Source: an uncultured Candidatus Saccharibacteria bacterium
GTDB lineage: Bacteria > Patescibacteriota > Doudnabacteria > UBA920
Reading direction: 5' to 3'
DNA length: 64,000 nt
Assembly: GCA_964436545.1 (NCBI GenBank)
Contig: CAYTCJ010000001.1
Coordinates: 142,392 to 206,391, forward strand
Positions 13,429 through 62,560 of the stretch are shown in pieces. The notes below the pieces were generated by a model that saw only the letters and a program-made list of their open reading frames with translations, did no database searches and was not told where the DNA came from. Position 1 is the first letter of the stretch. Each line of letters opens with the position of its first letter. Position numbers and translations under genes: made by a program.

Positions 13429-14136
13429 TTATTTCTCTTCGTCATCTTCATCCTCATCATCTTCATCTTCTTCTTCGTCATCTTCATTGTCGTCGGATGT
13501 GGGCTCATGAGCAGTCTGGTCCACAAGCGGTTGGTCGGATACGGGAGGTTGAGTGGGCGGAGTATCGGAAGGATTTAAGTCCGGTAAGGGGTTTTCCGGA
13601 TTAAAGATTTGACTTTCGGGCAATTTGATTTGCGCGACTAATTTTTCGAATTCGGGTAAGTCTGCTGTGGAGTTAAGGCCCATGTGGGATAAAAATTCGG
13701 TAGTGGTTTGGTAGACAAAACTTCTGGCATCGTTTAAGCTGGGAGTTTTTTCTATTAAGCCACGCATAAGTAAATGTCGTATGCTGTATTGGGAATTTAC
13801 TCCTCTAATGGCTTCAATTTCAGCTTTGGAAATGGGTTGTCTGTAGGCAATAATGCCCAAAACTTCCACGCTGGCATCGGTAAGTTTTTCTCTAAGCTCA
13901 GCGTTTAAAAAGTTTTTAACCACAGTGGAGTTTTCCGCGTTGGTCGCCATTTGGTATTCGCCGTTATTGTCTAAAATGACTACTCCGGAATTTTGTTTGC
14001 CGGCAATTAGGGTTTGTAGGGCCGGTTGAATAACTTCTGCCGGTTGGTCCAATAATTTGGAAAAATCCTTTACACTTAAAGGTTTACTGGAAACAAACAA
14101 CAGACTTTCAATTATTGAGGGAAGATTGTTGGACAT
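13429..14136 (-). CDS. scpB: segregation and condensation protein B with poly-acidic C-terminal tail
   Basis: ScpB-like double winged-helix region (IESLLFVS, IIAYRQPISKAEIEAIRGV); sits next to scpA. Confidence 0.88.
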   Translation of the reverse strand: MSNNLPSIIESLLFVSSKPLSVKDFSKLLDQPAEVIQPALQTLIAGKQNSGVVILDNNGEYQMATNAENSTVVKNFLNAELREKLTDASVEVLGIIAYRQPISKAEIEAIRGVNSQYSIRHLLMRGLIEKTPSLNDARSFVYQTTTEFLSHMGLNSTADLPEFEKLVAQIKLPESQIFNPENPLPDLNPSDTPPTQPPVSDQPLVDQTAHEPTSDDNEDDEEEDEDDEDEDDEEK

Positions 14137-14401: not shown

Positions 14402-15103
14402 TTACGTTTGTTTTTTTATAACTACTTCGGCAAATAAGGTTTCTTGCTCGGCGCTGAATAACCGCTGTTTAATTAATTCCAGTAAGGCTAAAAAAGTTAC
14501 AATAATTTCGTCTTTATTCTTGGCTTGGCTGATTAAATCGCTTAACTTGGTTTCAATTTGAGAGGAAAGTTGACCTTGCAAGTGGTCAATTTTTTCTTGA
14601 ATGGAAATGGCTTCTTTAATTTTAGCTTTGGGCAGATTATCCAGCTCTTTAAGTGCGGATAAGATTTTTAGAATGCTTTTGTGTAAAGTTTCGGCCGAAA
14701 CGGAAGGATCGGGAAAAAAGTTAATTTTTTCTTCAAAGGTTAGAATCCTGCCCCAGCTTTGTCTGCGTTTGTTGTCTTGATGTTTTAAAAATTTGGCAAC
14801 TTCTTTAAATTGTTTATAGAGCAATAATTTACCTTCCAAATCAACTCCCGGATCTTCTTCTTCGGTAGTAATTTCTAAAGTGGGGAGAATGGCTTTGGAT
14901 TTAATTACCAAAAGTTTGGCAGCAATAGCTAAGTAATCGGCTAAGGTGGTTGGGTCAATGTCTTTAAGTTGTTTAATGTATTGCAAAAATTGCTCGGTAA
15001 CGTCTGCCAGAGCAATGGTGGTAATGTCCAATTGTCTTTGTTCAATTAAACTTAGCAGTAAATCCAACGGGCCTTCAAAGTGTTTGGTTTTGGTGTGAAG
15101 CAT
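14402..15103 (-). CDS. scpA: segregation and condensation protein A
   Basis: FEGPLDLLLSLIEQRQLDITTIALADVTEQF is a typical ScpA N-terminus. Confidence 0.9.
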   Translation of the reverse strand: MLHTKTKHFEGPLDLLLSLIEQRQLDITTIALADVTEQFLQYIKQLKDIDPTTLADYLAIAAKLLVIKSKAILPTLEITTEEEDPGVDLEGKLLLYKQFKEVAKFLKHQDNKRRQSWGRILTFEEKINFFPDPSVSAETLHKSILKILSALKELDNLPKAKIKEAISIQEKIDHLQGQLSSQIETKLSDLISQAKNKDEIIVTFLALLELIKQRLFSAEQETLFAEVVIKKQT

Positions 15104-15111
15104 GCTTTTGT

Positions 15112-15517
15112 CTTGTCATCCCGTCCGCCAGCTGGCGGATTGATGCGGGATCCAGTTTATTTGATCAAGTTATTATATAAGTCTTGCCATTCAGGATTTT
15201 GTTTTTCAATTAAATCCAATTTCCATTTTCTTTTCCACTTTTTAAGCTGTTTTTCTCTTTCAATCGCAGATATTACTTCATTAGTTTGTTCATAATATAC
15301 TAAGGTGTGACATTTGTATCTCTTTGTAAAACCATCTGCTAAATTGTTTTTGTGTTGCCATGTTCTTTTTATTAAATCATTTGTGATCCCAATGTACAAA
15401 GTGCCGTTTCTTTTGCTTGCCATAATATATACATAGTAGTTTTTTTGATTTTTATACTTCATTGGGTGTTTTGTGTCTGGATCCCGCATCTCGGATGCAC
15501 TCGTGCGGGATGACAAG
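15112..15517 (-). mobile_element. GIY-YIG ORF enclosed by roughly 44-bp imperfect inverted-repeat arms
   Basis: Left arm CTTGTCATCCCG...GCGGGATCCAG (15112-15155) and right arm CTGGATCCCGC...CGGGATGACAAG (15477-15517) are reverse complements at both ends. Confidence 0.7.
15157..15462 (-). CDS. stand-alone GIY-YIG nuclease domain protein (101 aa)
   Basis: YYVYIMASKRNGTLYIGITNDLIKRTWQH and conserved E in AIEREKQLKKW. Start set at the internal ATG at 15462 because the track N-terminus runs through the repeat arm. Confidence 0.8.
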   Translation of the reverse strand: MKYKNQKNYYVYIMASKRNGTLYIGITNDLIKRTWQHKNNLADGFTKRYKCHTLVYYEQTNEVISAIEREKQLKKWKRKWKLDLIEKQNPEWQDLYNNLIK

Positions 15518-15541
15518 AAGGACAAGGAAGGGAGCTGGTAG

Positions 15542-16048
15542 TTATCGTTTTGTTTTTGAGAAAACACCCTTTATAGGTAAAACCAACTTCTCAAAATCTT
15601 TCATTGATAACTCAAAGCTGTCAGTATAAGAGCCGGCAGATGAAATAAGTTTTTTGCTCTTGGACATTCCTTTATCTAACAAGGTTTTAACATTATATTG
15701 ACTCCCAAACGGGTGTAAAAGGCCAATTTTAGTTTTTAGTTTTGCTTTAATTTCCTTTTCTGTGGCGAGGCTGACCTTTTTTGCCTTTAGAGCGGTTTTA
15801 ATTCCTTTTAAATCTAAATATTTACCTGCTGGCAGAACAATTAAAACAAAGTCTTTATCTGCACGCACTAAAACCACCTTAGCAATGTCGCTAAGTTTTC
15901 GTTTAGTGGTTTGGGCTAAATCGTGCGCCGTATACACGACTTTGTGTTTAAGTAAATTATACTTAACTTTGGTTTTATCTAAGAATTTGGTTAAATCGTT
16001 AGACAGTTTGGTGATTTTTGGATTTTTTTTCTTCATATTTTTTTTCAA
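15542..16048 (-). CDS. YbaK/aminoacyl-tRNA editing domain protein
   Basis: YbaK-like pattern (KVVLVRADKDFVLIVLPAGKYLDLKGIK ... HPFG). Confidence 0.7.
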   Translation of the reverse strand: MKKNMKKKNPKITKLSNDLTKFLDKTKVKYNLLKHKVVYTAHDLAQTTKRKLSDIAKVVLVRADKDFVLIVLPAGKYLDLKGIKTALKAKKVSLATEKEIKAKLKTKIGLLHPFGSQYNVKTLLDKGMSKSKKLISSAGSYTDSFELSMKDFEKLVLPIKGVFSKTKR

Positions 16049-35428: not shown

Positions 35429-35607
35429 CACCTTCACCCCCACCTAGTGTTATGCTTTGAATTACAGAACTAAACTCTTTTGTCATTCCGGCCCCGAGCC
35501 GGAATCTATGGCTTGATAAATAAGAGAATGTTAGATCCTGAAACAAGTTCAGAATGACAGTAAAAGGACGTCTGTAATTCAAAGTCTTATGGATGGAGGG
35601 AGAGGGG
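35429..35607. repeat. roughly 180-bp nested long-hairpin element, an ORF-less relative of the GIY-YIG element arms
   Basis: Nested inverted repeats: CTTTGAATTACAGA/TCTGTAATTCAAAG (35455-35468 with 35571-35584) and TGTCATTC/GAATGACA (35481-35488 with 35552-35559), plus GC-rich outer arms. Confidence 0.7.
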
Positions 35608-36340: not shown

Positions 36341-37976
36341 TTTTCAATTTTCAATTTTCAATTTTCCAATTAAGGTTTTTTTAGCCTTATGTGCTTTTTT
36401 TGTGTTGTCACAAAATGTTTTTGCTTACCAAGTGGGGATAAACCAAATTGTGTTAAACGATCCGGGTTATACCCAAAATGCTAACGATGTAGACAAGTCT
36501 TGGGGGTTGGTAAAAACCGCAGTCTTGCCGGTGTGGGAAAAAAATATCGGTTCTAAAGAAGTGGTAGTGGCAATTATAGATACCGGTGTAGACGCGACGC
36601 ACGAAGATTTGCAAAGTATCAATTGGGTAGAGGGCTTTGATGTATTAAACAGAAAATTAATTACCGGAAAAATCAATTCCGATGATAACGGCCACGGCAC
36701 ATTGATTGCCGGAGTAATTGGCGCCACGCCCAATAATTTAGTAGGGATTGCCGGTGTGGCTTGGCAAGTTTCCCTTATGCCCATTAAGGCTTTAGATGCC
36801 AAAGGTAAAGGGGATACGGCTAAAGTGGCAGAAGCGATTATTTGGGCAGTGGACCACGGCGCGCAAATAATTAATTTGTCAGTCGGGGGGATTGGTTTTG
36901 GGCGGGATAAGATTTTATCGGAAGCCATTACTTACGCGTATAGAAAGAATGTGGTGATTGTGGCAGCCGTGGGGAATGATTCCACCACCACTGCGGTAAA
37001 TTTGGACGAACAACCCGTGTATCCGGCTTGCGAAGATAACGGAGAAAATATGGTAATTGGCGTAAGCGCCATTGACCAGAACGATTTAAAACCCGAATTT
37101 GCCAACTTTGGAAAAAATTGTGTAGATGTGGTGGCGCCCGGCAAACGCATTTTATCTACAATTAACCACGACCCGGTTACACATAATTATTCGCCCAATG
37201 CCTATGCTTATGCTTCGGGTTCGTCTTTGGCTACGCCATTTGTAACCGGACAAGCAGTGCTTATTAAATCCGCTTTTCCTTATGCCACCAATGCGCAAAT
37301 TAGAGAGAGAATTTTAATGACTGCGGATAAAGTTGATATGCTGAATTTGTCCCAGTGTTTGGGCAGGTTATGCGCCGGGCTTTTAGGGCAGGGAAGAATT
37401 AACGTTAAAAATAGTTTGGATACGCAAATTTTACAAACCGCTTTTTTGGAAGGGGATTTGTTAAGATCCACTCAAACCGGCAATGTGTATTTTTACACTG
37501 CGGGGAAAAGAATGTTAGTGTCCAGTTTTGTGTATAACCAAAGGTTTTTAGGTTTATTTGTTAAAAATTTGCCCGAAGAACAACTTACCCCGATTCCCGA
37601 AGGCCCTTACGCTTTGCCGGCGGAAAACACTTTGGTTAAAGCAGAAAAAGATAAAACCGTTTACCTCATTAAAAATAACCAAAAATTACCCGTTTCAGCC
37701 AAAGTGTTTGCTCAAAGAGGGTTTAAGTTTTCCCAAATTCAAGTGGTGAGTTTTGCCGAATTAAACTCTTGGGTGCCGGGAAATTTTTTGGCGCCAATAG
37801 ATGGCACCATAGTTAAAAGTCTAAATGGCAAGCAAACGTTTTGGACTTTAAACGAAACCTTAAGGCCCATTAATCAACAATTTATTAAAGCTCGGGGTTT
37901 GGGCGGTTTTCCCAAATTGGTTTTTAGCGACAAAGAGCTTACCGGCTTTGCCAAAGGTGAGTCACTAATTAAGTAA
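36330..37976 (+). CDS. secreted subtilisin-like serine protease (S8) with C-terminal repeat modules
   Basis: Catalytic triad motifs IIDTGVD, NGHGTLIAG and SGSSLATPFV. Signal peptide. Start set at the ATG at 36330, which overlaps the previous stop. Confidence 0.9.
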   Translation: MKNNFQFSIFNFPIKVFLALCAFFVLSQNVFAYQVGINQIVLNDPGYTQNANDVDKSWGLVKTAVLPVWEKNIGSKEVVVAIIDTGVDATHEDLQSINWVEGFDVLNRKLITGKINSDDNGHGTLIAGVIGATPNNLVGIAGVAWQVSLMPIKALDAKGKGDTAKVAEAIIWAVDHGAQIINLSVGGIGFGRDKILSEAITYAYRKNVVIVAAVGNDSTTTAVNLDEQPVYPACEDNGENMVIGVSAIDQNDLKPEFANFGKNCVDVVAPGKRILSTINHDPVTHNYSPNAYAYASGSSLATPFVTGQAVLIKSAFPYATNAQIRERILMTADKVDMLNLSQCLGRLCAGLLGQGRINVKNSLDTQILQTAFLEGDLLRSTQTGNVYFYTAGKRMLVSSFVYNQRFLGLFVKNLPEEQLTPIPEGPYALPAENTLVKAEKDKTVYLIKNNQKLPVSAKVFAQRGFKFSQIQVVSFAELNSWVPGNFLAPIDGTIVKSLNGKQTFWTLNETLRPINQQFIKARGLGGFPKLVFSDKELTGFAKGESLIK

Positions 37977-43559: not shown

Positions 43560-44653
43560 TAATAGGTATTGAAGCCGAACGAGCCAACACTTCGCAAAAA
43601 ACCGGAGTGGAGCATTATGCAAAACAATTAATTCTTCATTTGGCCAAACTTGACACTATAAATACATATATCTTGTATTTAAGGACTGAGCCGGAAGAAT
43701 GGTTTTTAGCTTTGCCGAAAAATTTTAAAGTTAAGGTTATGCCTTTTCCCGTATTTTGGACCCAAATTCGGTTATCGTGGGAAATGTTTTTCCGCCCTCC
43801 GGATGTGCTATTTGTGCCGGCTTCCGCTTTGCCTTTGGTGCACCCTAAAAATTCCGTAATTACTATTCACGATGTGGCTTGGCGTTATTTTCCGGAAAGT
43901 TTTACCGCGTTTATGAAATGGTTTTTAGAGTGGTCCACTCAATTGGCAGTTAAGCGGGCCGGTAAAATTATTGCGGTTTCCGAAAGTACTAAAAAAGATA
44001 TTTTAAAATTTTATAGAGTTAATGATAGAAATATTCAAGTAATTTATCACGGTTACGAGACATCCTCCCCCCTAGAGGGAGAGGGGAGGGTGAGGGGGCT
44101 ACCCGAAAAATACGTTTTATTTTTATCCACGCTTCAACCGAGAAAAAATTTAGCCGGTTTAATTGATGCTTTTAAATTACTAAAAATTGAGCACCCGGAT
44201 TTGCCTCATAAGTTAGTGGTGGTGGGTAAAGCGGGCTGGAAGTATGAGAGTATCATACAAAAAATTAAAGCCAACTCAGACACTGTTATATACTTAAGTT
44301 ATGTGAGCGATGCAGACCGGTTAGCCGTATTGTCGCAAGCGGATTTGTTAGTTTTACCTTCTTTGTACGAAGGTTTTGGCATGCAAATTCTAGAAGCTTT
44401 TGCCTTGCAAGTGCCGGTAGTTTTATCTAACACTTCCAGTTTGCCCGAGGTGGCCGGCGAAGCTGGGCTGTATTTTGATCCAAAAAAACCTCAGGATATT
44501 AAGCAGGCAATTGCCAGTGTGTTATTTGATAAGTCGTTGGCGGAAAATTTAACCGCCAAAGGGAAGGCACGATTAAAATTATTTAGTTGGGAAAAGTGCG
44601 CCCAAGAAACTTTAAATATTTTTTTGTCATTCCGTCCGCCAGCTGGGGATTGA
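43556..44653 (+). CDS. family 4 (GT-B) glycosyltransferase
   Basis: C-terminal EGFGMQILEA motif (E-x7-E region). The stop codon lies inside a hairpin-element fragment. Confidence 0.88.
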   Translation: MIIGIEAERANTSQKTGVEHYAKQLILHLAKLDTINTYILYLRTEPEEWFLALPKNFKVKVMPFPVFWTQIRLSWEMFFRPPDVLFVPASALPLVHPKNSVITIHDVAWRYFPESFTAFMKWFLEWSTQLAVKRAGKIIAVSESTKKDILKFYRVNDRNIQVIYHGYETSSPLEGEGRVRGLPEKYVLFLSTLQPRKNLAGLIDAFKLLKIEHPDLPHKLVVVGKAGWKYESIIQKIKANSDTVIYLSYVSDADRLAVLSQADLLVLPSLYEGFGMQILEAFALQVPVVLSNTSSLPEVAGEAGLYFDPKKPQDIKQAIASVLFDKSLAENLTAKGKARLKLFSWEKCAQETLNIFLSFRPPAGD

Positions 44654-44671
44654 TCCGGAATCTATTCGCCT

Positions 44672-56859: not shown

Positions 56860-57249
56860 ATGGCTCGTATTGCAGGTATAAACATTCCCAACGAAAAAAC
56901 CATTGTGGCATCCTTACCTTATATTTACGGGGTGGGTTGGCCTTTGGCGCGAAAAATTTTAAATGAGGTAAAAGTTAGTCCTCATAAAAGAACTAAAGAT
57001 TTAACCGAAGTGGAATTAAACAAGATTCGCGATTATATTGAAAAGAGTTTTAAAGTTGAAGGGGAGTTAAAGCAACAAGTCTTGTTAAACATTAAAAGAC
57101 TTAAAGAAATTTCCGCTTATCGTGGTATTAGGCATATGCGGGGTTTACCGGTTAGAGGTCAACGAACTAAAACCAATTCCCGCACCCGCCGAGGTAATGT
57201 AAGAAAAACCGCAGGCTCTGGCAGAAAATCCGCTTCGGAAAAGACCTAA
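56860..57249 (+). CDS. rpsM: 30S ribosomal protein S13
   Basis: [11 protein letters not shown]-terminus and an Arg-rich C-terminus. Confidence 0.96.
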
Positions 57250-61819: not shown

Positions 61820-61824
61820 AAATG

Positions 61825-62560
61825 TTTAAAGCAAACTCATAAGCCGAATTCTGTTCACCCCGTTAGAAGTCCGGTGTCTAAAGACATCGGCAGACGCCTT
61901 TTGGCGTCTTACTTCTAACGGGGTTAACAATCATCTCTCTGGTCCCGATGTTACCACCGGGATCTTGCGACCTACCAAATTTGGTCTTGCACTCAAGTAA
62001 GAATTTAGCCGTTTCACCCGAGCGTTAGCGAGAATGTCCTACGAAGCCTTAGCATAAGTAGGCTACTCGTTTATTACTCGGCTCGCCCTGCCCTTTGCTT
62101 GCAAAGAGCGGGGCGTCCCGACTCTTTCGTATCGGGACGTCTCTGTTCGCATCTCGCACCTTACGGTGGACGGGGATTACCCGCTACTATTTTTGATAAC
62201 TCTTAAGCGGTCATCAAATAAGTGTTCGGACTTTCCTCCCCCCACTTTCTATCCTTTATTACAATTCAAAAGCTTGCAAGCTATTTTGAATACGTTTTTT
62301 TAGTTGCCCATAACTGCCTTTGAATTGTTTGAGATTTTTTTCTCTGGCTCTCGCATCTTTCTCTGATGCAAAAGCTTCGTAGTAAATCAATCCAACAGGG
62401 AGCCTATGTTTGGTATATCCTGATTGCAAAGACATATGTTCCTTAATTCTTCGCTTTAGGTCACTTGTGTAACCTATATAGATTTGACCACCTTTGGATA
62501 TTTTCAAAGCATAGACATAAAACATAGAAAGTGGGGGGCGATTGTTCGGTTTGCTTTAAA
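61825..62560 (-). ncRNA. rnpB: RNase P RNA (bacterial type A) interrupted in P3 by a 275-nt ORF-bearing insert
   Basis: GAGGAAAGUCCG, GGGUGAAACGGC, GCAAGACCAAAU, GGUAGGUCGCAAGAU, AGAGAUGAUUGUU and ACAGAAUUCGGCUUAUG motifs appear in the canonical order. P1, P2 and P3 pairings were verified by hand. Confidence 0.85.
62259..62525 (-). CDS. stand-alone GIY-YIG nuclease domain protein (88 aa) inside the rnpB P3 loop
   Basis: MFYVYALKISKGGQIYIGYTSDLKRRIKEH ... EKDARAREKNLK is a GIY-YIG signature; same strand as rnpB. Confidence 0.8.
   Translation of the reverse strand: MFYVYALKISKGGQIYIGYTSDLKRRIKEHMSLQSGYTKHRLPVGLIYYEAFASEKDARAREKNLKQFKGSYGQLKKRIQNSLQAFEL

Follow-up and report, generated by a model that had tools for sequence, protein, structure and literature searches.

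A short open reading frame (ORF) bracketed by inverted repeats in the genome of an uncultured Saccharibacteria-like bacterium of the candidate phyla radiation (CPR) is, judging from its sequence, very probably an ssnA gene with its cognate inverted SRM hairpins, in the NTS/SRM–ssnA–SRM layout described by Chenal et al. 2025 (Nat Commun 16:2388; PMC11893778). The window, that is, the whole stretch of DNA analyzed, comprises 64,000 nucleotides (positions 142,392 to 206,391 of contig CAYTCJ010000001.1, assembly GCA_964436545.1), and all unprefixed positions below refer to it. The gene lies at 15157-15462 on the minus strand (TAA stop codon at 15157-15159 included), and its product is an Ssn-type GIY-YIG protein of 101 aa with a single domain. 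A hairpin of the SRM/NTS kind is found on both sides of it, at 15477-15518 on the minus strand and at 15111-15155 on the plus strand. An earlier note on this DNA had taken the same locus for an ORF carried in the loop of one long stem.

In the study of Chenal et al., the NTS repeat (CGTCATTCCCGCGMAVGCGGGAATCYRG, which has a dRS3 core) and the related SRM hairpins were reported to flank ssnA in many phyla, with at least one SRM near 71% of ssnA homologs and SRMs on both sides of 42% of them. SsnA is a 94-aa single-domain GIY-YIG protein (cd10448), the cutting activity of which is abolished by the substitutions Y6A, Y17A, and E64A. Ssn binds the hairpin only as single-stranded DNA (ssDNA) and cuts a few nucleotides upstream of it, on one strand only, and is inactive on double-stranded DNA (dsDNA) and RNA; four homologs were assayed in vitro (PMC11893778). 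In Neisseria meningitidis, SsnA lowers transformation by NTS-bearing DNA, and an NTS–ssnA–NTS layout resembling that of an insertion sequence (IS) was raised as a hypothesis only (PMC11893778). The main text of that paper makes no mention of CPR, Patescibacteria, or Saccharibacteria, and a search of the literature on GIY-YIG together with COG2827, repetitive extragenic palindromic (REP) sequences, or Patescibacteria found nothing relevant.

The probable ssnA gene product

The GIY-YIG fold is taken as settled, because a Pfam profile search matched PF01541 over residues 8-82 (E=1.1e-15) and the catalytic residues are conserved. Residues Y12, Y23, R33, H37, and E70 are invariant among 19 aligned sequences, and the spacings between Y12, Y23, and E70 (11 and 47 residues) are identical to those between Y6, Y17, and E64 of N. 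meningitidis SsnA. In P0119, a 94-aa homolog from Rhodocyclales that is 70% identical to the protein studied here, the numbering is exactly Y6, Y17, and E64. The conserved C-terminal motif KKWxRxWKxxLIExxNPxWxDLY is also present. No second domain scored above its curated cut-off (APD1-4_M reached 19.5 bits vs. a cut-off of 25), and with 101 aa, among homologs of 94-105 aa, the protein has the single-domain build of the Ssn family (~94 aa).

The protein has a single public entry (P0001, 136 aa), annotated from a GTG codon at 15567, which so reads through the 5' hairpin and overlaps the upstream ybaK-like gene; homologs favor the ATG codon at 15462, which yields the 101-aa form. The gene has no visible Shine-Dalgarno sequence. 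That remark of the earlier note is true, and is uninformative, because a Shine-Dalgarno-like motif precedes only seven of the 46 long ORFs of the window and its lack is the norm in this genome. A search of the PDB did not find a close relative with a solved structure; the top matches were spurious WD40 entries, and UPF0213 structure 1ywl was matched at only E=0.007. PADLOC and PHROGs assigned ssnA to neither a defense nor a phage family.

Two inverted hairpins flank the gene

Two collinear, perfectly complementary inverted repeats bracket ssnA: an outer one of 13 nt (TCTTGTCATCCCG/CGGGATGACAAGA, at 15111-15123 and 15506-15518) and an inner one of 14 nt (GATGCGGGATCCAG/CTGGATCCCGCATC, at 15142-15155 and 15477-15490). 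Among 1000 mononucleotide shuffles of 15091-15540, three contained any long-range inverted repeat of at least 11 nt. The observation of the earlier note, a 101-aa GIY-YIG ORF between inverted repeats, is thus confirmed by the PF01541 match and the two perfect repeats. The complementarity that it gave for the arms is exact; the lengths are not, since both repeats extend 1-3 nt further. The distance to the start codon of scpA (15101-15103) needs correction as well, from 9 nt to 7 nt when counted from the full repeat (15104-15110), or to 8 nt from the arm as then drawn.

Both arms fold on themselves, as oriented hairpins of the form TTGTCATCCCG…CGGGATCCAG, and the two copies are mutually inverted. 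The 5' SRM hairpin (15477-15518, minus strand, i.e., the coding strand) reads TCTTGTCATCCCGCA-cgagtgcatccgaga-TGCGGGATCCAG, with an 8-bp stem (ATCCCGCA/TGCGGGAT) and a 15-nt loop, and has a predicted ssDNA folding energy of -9.9 kcal/mol. Its GTCAT head, its palindrome, and the C that follows agree with the published anatomy of NTS/SRM, whereas its loop length does not. The 3' SRM hairpin (15111-15155, plus strand, antisense to ssnA) reads TCTTGTCATCCCG-tccgccagctggcggattgatg-CGGGATCCAG; it has a 6-bp stem (ATCCCG/CGGGAT), a 22-nt loop, and a nested 6-bp hairpin, and is predicted to fold as ssDNA at -10.9 kcal/mol, the nested hairpin included. Because the copies are inverted, the GTCAT-headed strand is the coding strand in the 5' copy and the opposite strand in the 3' copy. 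Each arm also contains a small palindrome of its own, as the earlier note had seen: the perfect palindrome TCCGCCAGCTGGCGGA nested in the 3' SRM loop (15124-15139, without strand) and GCATC-TCG-GATGC at 15486-15498. The 5' SRM loop carries the module GAGTGCATCCGA (15491-15502, minus strand), which occurs a single time in the window compared with 0.03 expected, and the two loops are not mutually complementary. The GC content is 55-61% in the hairpin arms, 27.5% in the ssnA ORF, and 38% in the window.

Homologs carry the same hairpins and the stems covary

A total of 7359 homologs, 55-80% identical to the protein of the window, were found in many phyla, including Patescibacteria, Planctomycetota, Nitrospirota, Ignavibacteria, and Proteobacteria (Shewanella and Undibacterium among them). 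Flanks were surveyed in 83 ssnA gene copies from 80 genomes, and at least one GTCAT-headed hairpin was present within 150 nt in 73 of the 83 copies. Within that distance, a sense hairpin lies upstream in 54/83 (65%), an antisense hairpin downstream in 61/83 (73%), and an inverted pair in 44/83 (53%), while distal windows of these loci give a background of 1.4-1.6% for each window and strand. Upstream hairpins lie a median of 13 nt from the start codon, and downstream hairpins a median of 9 nt past the stop codon. An indirect bridge to Neisseria is provided by proteobacterial, planctomycete, and other homologs, 55-73% identical to the protein of the window, that are flanked by the Neisseria NTS consensus; 17 loci contain the inner part of this consensus, and two contain the full 28-nt consensus.

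For an analysis of covariation, 92 distinct 28-nt sites were chosen solely by the anchors GTCAT…ATC. In this set, 97.8% of the stem cells pair, and all six unanchored pairs show double-sided compensatory changes, at values reached by none of 500 shuffles. In addition, among 31 other loci with two perfect hairpins, the 5' and 3' stems are unlike each other in 19, each stem still forming a perfect local 8-bp helix. Since the stems differ in these loci and the local stems covary, selection acts on each local hairpin rather than on a long-range stem.

Relation to known systems

The locus and the published Ssn/SsnA system are alike in a single-domain GIY-YIG protein of ~94-101 aa with identical Tyr/Tyr/Glu spacing, in an oriented hairpin whose GTCAT head is followed by a palindrome of the form ATyCCnG/CnGGrAT and then by a C, and in an inverted copy on each side of the gene; candidate extra copies lie in intergenic DNA of the window. 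They differ in the host, which here is a Saccharibacteria-like CPR bacterium, in the loops, which here measure 15 and 22 nt and contain nested mini-hairpins that escape the published pattern, and in the small number of copies seen (~7 in 64 kb). The Neisseria dRS3 repeats and the neisserial intergenic mosaic elements (NIMEs) have a core palindrome of the same type (ATTCCC-N8-GGGAAT in dRS3, ATCCCG…CGGGAT here), and are likewise intergenic and often in arrays. However, dRS3 is defined without an oriented GTCAT head, and its hundreds of copies in Neisseria lie around surface-protein genes, while the copies here are sparse. A small ORF between inverted repeats is also seen in the intervening sequences of 23S ribosomal (r)RNA and in the non-intron insertions of GIY-YIG genes into rRNA genes of CPR bacteria (PMC11270868). 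Those insertions are found inside structural RNA helices, where the repeat is an RNA stem; in contrast, the ssnA cassette lies between genes, and the repeats around it are DNA hairpins that fold on their own.

Several points weigh against the assignment to Ssn. The published degenerate SRM pattern, HGTCWYN(0-2)YYVSBRHN(0-5)WNVSBRGN(0-2)RNCYNB, has no match in the window, and the reason is that the loops are too long. In the 5' copy, both half-sites fit and the loop alone exceeds the pattern, with 13 nt in the N(0-5) slot (15 nt from stem to stem); in the 3' copy, the stem positions deviate too, and a loop of 22 nt stands where at most 5 nt are allowed. The assignment was, moreover, reached through intermediate homologs, the published biochemistry concerns homologs from outside the CPR, and the published role in transformation is that in Neisseria. 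The pattern itself matches only 36 of 80 ssnA loci, and misses many canonical CTG-stem hairpins. The pattern is a search heuristic rather than a definition, and because 44 of the 80 genuine ssnA loci escape it as well, its failure in the window is kept as a caveat and not as an exclusion. With these points taken together, the Ssn assignment is still very likely to be correct.

A resident cassette at a polymorphic site

The gene order aspS–ybaK–ssnA–scpA–scpB recurs in five other loci (L001, L002, and L095-97). Among these syntenic relatives, SsnA identity (76-80%) parallels that of ScpA (75-81%), and comparison of ssnA with the syntenic orthologs indicates purifying selection (pN of 0.09-0.13 vs. 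pS of 0.78-0.84). The ssnA cassette of this lineage is a vertically inherited and selected resident with the anatomy of a former mobile unit, and the comparative record agrees with this.

The site between ybaK and scpA is not always occupied in the same way. It contains ssnA in the window and in the five syntenic loci, is empty in L083/84, L085, and L087, and holds other cassettes in L081, L082, and L089; the polymorphism that the earlier note had proposed to look for in relatives is therefore present. The closest relatives by ScpA carry these other cassettes, at sites equivalent to 15104-15541 of the window. A DUF559 ORF between 20-nt inverted hairpins follows ybaK in L081 (2066-2490; ScpA 86% identical), and a PDDEXK_3 ORF between 20-nt inverted repeats follows ybaK in L082 (84-513; ScpA 80%). 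In L089, which lacks ybaK, a 23S_rRNA_IVP ORF with 52-nt repeats follows aspS (2037-2494; ScpA 64%). Traces of such cassettes also occur beside ssnA: L001 and L002 have a right-end remnant of the PDDEXK_3 type between the 3' SRM and scpA, and L001 and L095 have a half-hairpin of the DUF559 type (TCCCTCCCTTA) before the 5' SRM. A tblastn match of the C-terminus of DUF559 at 37146-37196 of the window was dropped, as it lies inside an ordinary coding region.

In Doudnabacteria (L098-L101), an ssnA of the same subclade (76-77% identity) is situated between the genes for transketolase and pfkB. The GAGTGCATCCGA 12-mer is present in SRM loops beside ssnA both in L002 and L095-97, with a Saccharibacteria-type context, and in L098-L101, with this different context. 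Since the same subclade and loop module sit elsewhere in Doudnabacteria, the gene-plus-hairpin unit appears to have moved between contexts at some time. Neither target-site duplications nor conserved termini were found for the cassette, and among the 45 hairpin pairs compared for termini, identity beyond GTCAT extends over only 1-2 nt in 39. A 4-nt outward identity, TCTT, considered as the element terminus at the extrapolated Ssn cut site, was rejected after comparison of the 45 pairs, because it is idiosyncratic to this locus.

Some of these observations can be combined in a broader proposal, which we put forward tentatively. The ybaK-scpA gap of these Saccharibacteria may be a hot spot at which four unrelated kinds of small gene, Ssn (GIY-YIG), DUF559 (Vsr-like), PDDEXK_3 (GxxExxY), and 23S_rRNA_IVP (four-helix bundle), are swapped, each as a cassette of ~400-460 nt with its own family-specific inverted repeats, with remnants left behind. 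They would belong to a general class of hairpin-bracketed single-gene mobile cassettes for which the hairpins of other cassettes serve as sites of insertion or recombination, as do the hairpin loops of structural RNAs (rnpB P3 and rRNA).

Alternative explanations

Whether the unit is mobile now, rather than only by origin, is the matter in dispute with one alternative, which is otherwise compatible with an ssnA gene and its cognate SRM hairpins: that of an active element like an IS or a miniature inverted-repeat transposable element, with SRMs as terminal inverted repeats, Ssn as an ssDNA-cutting 'transposase' (cf. TnpA of IS200/IS605 and the REP-associated tyrosine transposases, RAYTs), and solo SRMs as non-autonomous derivatives. 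We consider such present activity possible but doubtful. It draws on the polymorphic ybaK-scpA site with its ssnA, empty, and otherwise filled states, on the SsnA subclade and GAGTGCATCCGA module shared with the transketolase-pfkB site of Doudnabacteria, on SRM-type hairpins lying in frame within the ybaK genes of relatives and not in that of the window, on a hairpin nested in the loop of another (L001), on a gene-less inverted SRM pair at 35482-35560, on multiple ssnA copies at single loci (L078, L056, and L023), and on the same hypothesis having been raised in PMC11893778. REP sequences and their bacterial interspersed mosaic elements with RAYTs (IS200/IS605-like Y1) offer a close parallel, in that a small nuclease gene lies between inverted hairpin repeats recognized as ssDNA, the repeats are dispersed, and a domesticated-transposase scenario is suggested in both cases. 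The likeness is architectural only, as the protein here is GIY-YIG and not an HUH/Y1 transposase; the folds are unrelated, and a covalent HUH/Y1 intermediate contrasts with hydrolysis by GIY-YIG. GIY-YIG enzymes cut DNA by hydrolysis and are not known to carry out strand transfer, and neither transposition nor the spreading of repeats is known for any Ssn. Both points count against present mobility, as do the conserved synteny, the equal divergence of SsnA and its neighbor ScpA, the strong purifying selection, the lack of target-site duplications, and the unconserved outer termini.

That a single stem between the 5' and 3' arms, as RNA or as a DNA cruciform with the ORF in its loop, is the selected or targeted structure seems very improbable, and this view, which was that of the earlier note, is already largely refuted. 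The two perfect repeats and a minimum-free-energy RNA fold of 15095-15545 that pairs the arms (-94.8 kcal/mol, z -3.15) speak for it; any palindromic motif present in two inverted copies will, however, pair arm to arm automatically. The non-complementary loops, the differing 5' and 3' stems with perfect local helices in 19 of 31 loci, the covariation of the local stems, and the failure of Ssn to bind RNA (PMC11893778) all speak for two self-folding copies instead. Nor is it at all likely that the gene is a free-standing GIY-YIG homing endonuclease that cuts the empty ybaK-scpA site as dsDNA and is copied in by double-strand-break repair. Homing endonucleases of the I-TevI type, like UPF0213/YhbQ, share the GIY-YIG catalytic core, weak profile matches to GIY-YIG homing endonucleases were obtained (TIGR01453, E=0.002; phrog_5123, E=6e-4), and empty and filled sites both exist. 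Nonetheless, the matches to intron-endonuclease profiles stay below the respective cut-offs (18 bits for TIGR01453, where 56 are required), and the ~100-aa protein consists of the catalytic domain only, without DNA-binding domains of the I-TevI type; Ssn proteins in general lack such a domain and do not cut dsDNA (PMC11893778). Near-identical genes occur, moreover, in unrelated contexts across phyla, and what is conserved beside them is the hairpins and not a target gene. Least probable of all is a role of the hairpins in host regulation, in which they would serve the ybaK-scpAB operon as terminators, attenuators, or RNA-stability elements and have nothing to do with the ORF. Both do occupy short gaps between genes that run in one direction, and 7 nt separate the 3' hairpin from the start codon of scpA. 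Scans for terminators and promoters called nothing at either hairpin, however, and no T-tract follows the hairpins on the sense strand; relatives with an empty site have no hairpins, and the recurrence of the same hairpins beside ssnA in unrelated operons and phyla already contradicts this explanation.

Other SRM-like hairpins in the window

A relaxed hairpin model found six hairpins in the 64-kb window, compared with 1.36 in shuffles (shuffle maximum, six); one of them, at 57047-57100, looks spurious. A solo SRM-like hairpin, TGTCATCCTGAAC-taa-GTTCAGGATCCAA, is intergenic at 196-220 on the minus strand (predicted ssDNA fold of -8.7 kcal/mol, z -5.3). At 35482-35560, an intergenic inverted pair on both strands, ~27 nt apart, encloses no gene. 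Its first hairpin, TGTCATTCCGGC…GCCGGAATCTAT (35482-35506, plus strand), folds at -8.7 kcal/mol (z -5.3), and its second (35534-35560, minus strand) is weaker and not significant (-2.7 kcal/mol). This pair may be a derivative of the ssnA cassette that is devoid of the gene. Another solo hairpin, at the junction of two ORFs (44626-44662, plus strand; stem ATTCCG/CGGAAT), folds weakly (-5.8 kcal/mol, z -1.1). It has a loop insert in common with the hairpin at 15115-15152, TCCGCCAGCTGG(C)GGATTGAT, while the outer stems differ in a compensated manner (ATTCCG/CGGAAT vs. ATCCCG/CGGGAT); a similar insert, TCCGCCGGTGGCGGA, was seen in an SRM of L078, a Melioribacteraceae locus.

The weaker partner at 35534-35560 comes on top of the six, and so does a solo copy with a TTCAT head, TTCATCCCGAA-cttgc-TTCGGGATCCAT, at 1496-1523 on the plus strand. 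The latter follows an rplL-like ORF within a 55-nt tandem duplication (1471-1564), of which copy 1 forms the perfect TTCAT-headed hairpin and copy 2 retains the 5' half only. Outside the window, L001 has a second GTCAT-headed hairpin inside the loop of its 5' SRM (2865-2937), and a further SRM between the 5' SRM and ssnA.

Neighboring genes and the ORF in rnpB

On the minus strand, the genes are ordered ybaK-like, ssnA, scpA, and scpB. The upstream neighbor encodes a YbaK-like aminoacyl-tRNA editing domain (15542-16048; PF04073, E=5e-23), with 23 nt between its stop codon and the 5' SRM. Downstream, scpA (14402-15103; PF02616, E=7e-28) starts 7 nt after the 3' SRM and is followed by scpB (13429-14136). 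The ybaK-like genes of several relatives contain in-frame insertions of 16-40 codons at one position, e.g., …VIASPEGLRGARQSN…LAMT…, which are translated palindromic repeats (L001:2239-2829, L002:2259-2864, L081:1425-2057, and L083:1890-2447); the insertion in L002 contains the SRM loop module GAGTGCATCCGA, and the ybaK-like gene of the window has no insertion.

A second GIY-YIG ORF, which is not of the Ssn type, is located in the P3 hairpin of the RNase P RNA (62259-62525, minus strand, in the region 61824-62541). Its product is 37% identical to that of ssnA and lacks the Ssn C-terminal motif. Rfam detected rnpB of the window below the gathering score (58.6 bits). The flanks of this ORF, CCCCCCACTTTCTAT/ATAGAAAGTGGGGGG, with the repeat reading CGCCCCCCACTTTCTATG…(T)AGAAAGTGGGGGGAGGAAAGTCCG, form a genuine long-range stem, the P3 helix, and are not SRM hairpins. 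The arrangement recurs in three other Patescibacteria loci (L090, L092, and L094), where the proteins are 61-95% identical; L093 has a homolog of 68% identity that lies outside rnpB and is flanked by a different inverted repeat. The earlier note had ascribed one architecture to both ORFs. The resemblance is superficial only, as the proteins belong to different GIY-YIG families and only rnpB has a true long-range repeat. Its suggestion that hairpin-forming DNA is where such genes sit, or what they target, agrees, on the other hand, with the binding of Ssn to its flanking hairpin as ssDNA and cutting beside it (PMC11893778). As a whole, its interpretation is partly supported.

Proposed mechanism and significance

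A mechanism for the module can be proposed by extension from the characterized homologs of Neisseria and Wolbachia, rather than from the protein of the window. Whenever the DNA becomes single-stranded, during uptake, replication, or recombination, each SRM would extrude as a local hairpin. Ssn would then bind this hairpin along with the GTCAT head on its 5' side and the C that follows the palindrome, and would hydrolyze only the GTCAT strand, a few nucleotides 5' of the motif, sparing dsDNA and RNA. Extrapolation places the cuts near 15518/15519 (minus strand) and near 15110/15111 (plus strand), at the outer edges of the cassette, and approximately five further SRM-like hairpins in the 64-kb window might serve as additional targets. 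By analogy with Neisseria, where transformation is limited in this way, the probable role of the module is to determine what becomes of ssDNA that bears SRMs.

The supposed new element, with its ORF in the loop of a hairpin, can thus very probably be filed as the ssnA–SRM module of a family published in 2025. Beyond that publication, the locus suggests that Ssn and its hairpins reach CPR/Saccharibacteria, in a form that the published pattern misses (long loops, nested hairpins, and the GAGTGCATCCGA module), and the comparison identifies the local hairpins, not a long-range stem, as the selected structure. The hot-spot pattern is the part most deserving of attention. Filled, empty, and alternatively filled sites, together with the same unit in another CPR class, bear on the IS-like hypothesis of the original paper (PMC11893778), and if the hot-spot proposal is true, SRM-ssnA-SRM would be one case of an undescribed general class of cassettes. 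Should the Ssn proteins of CPR bacteria prove to read larger hairpins, the family, which is being developed as ssDNA tools, would gain new specificities.

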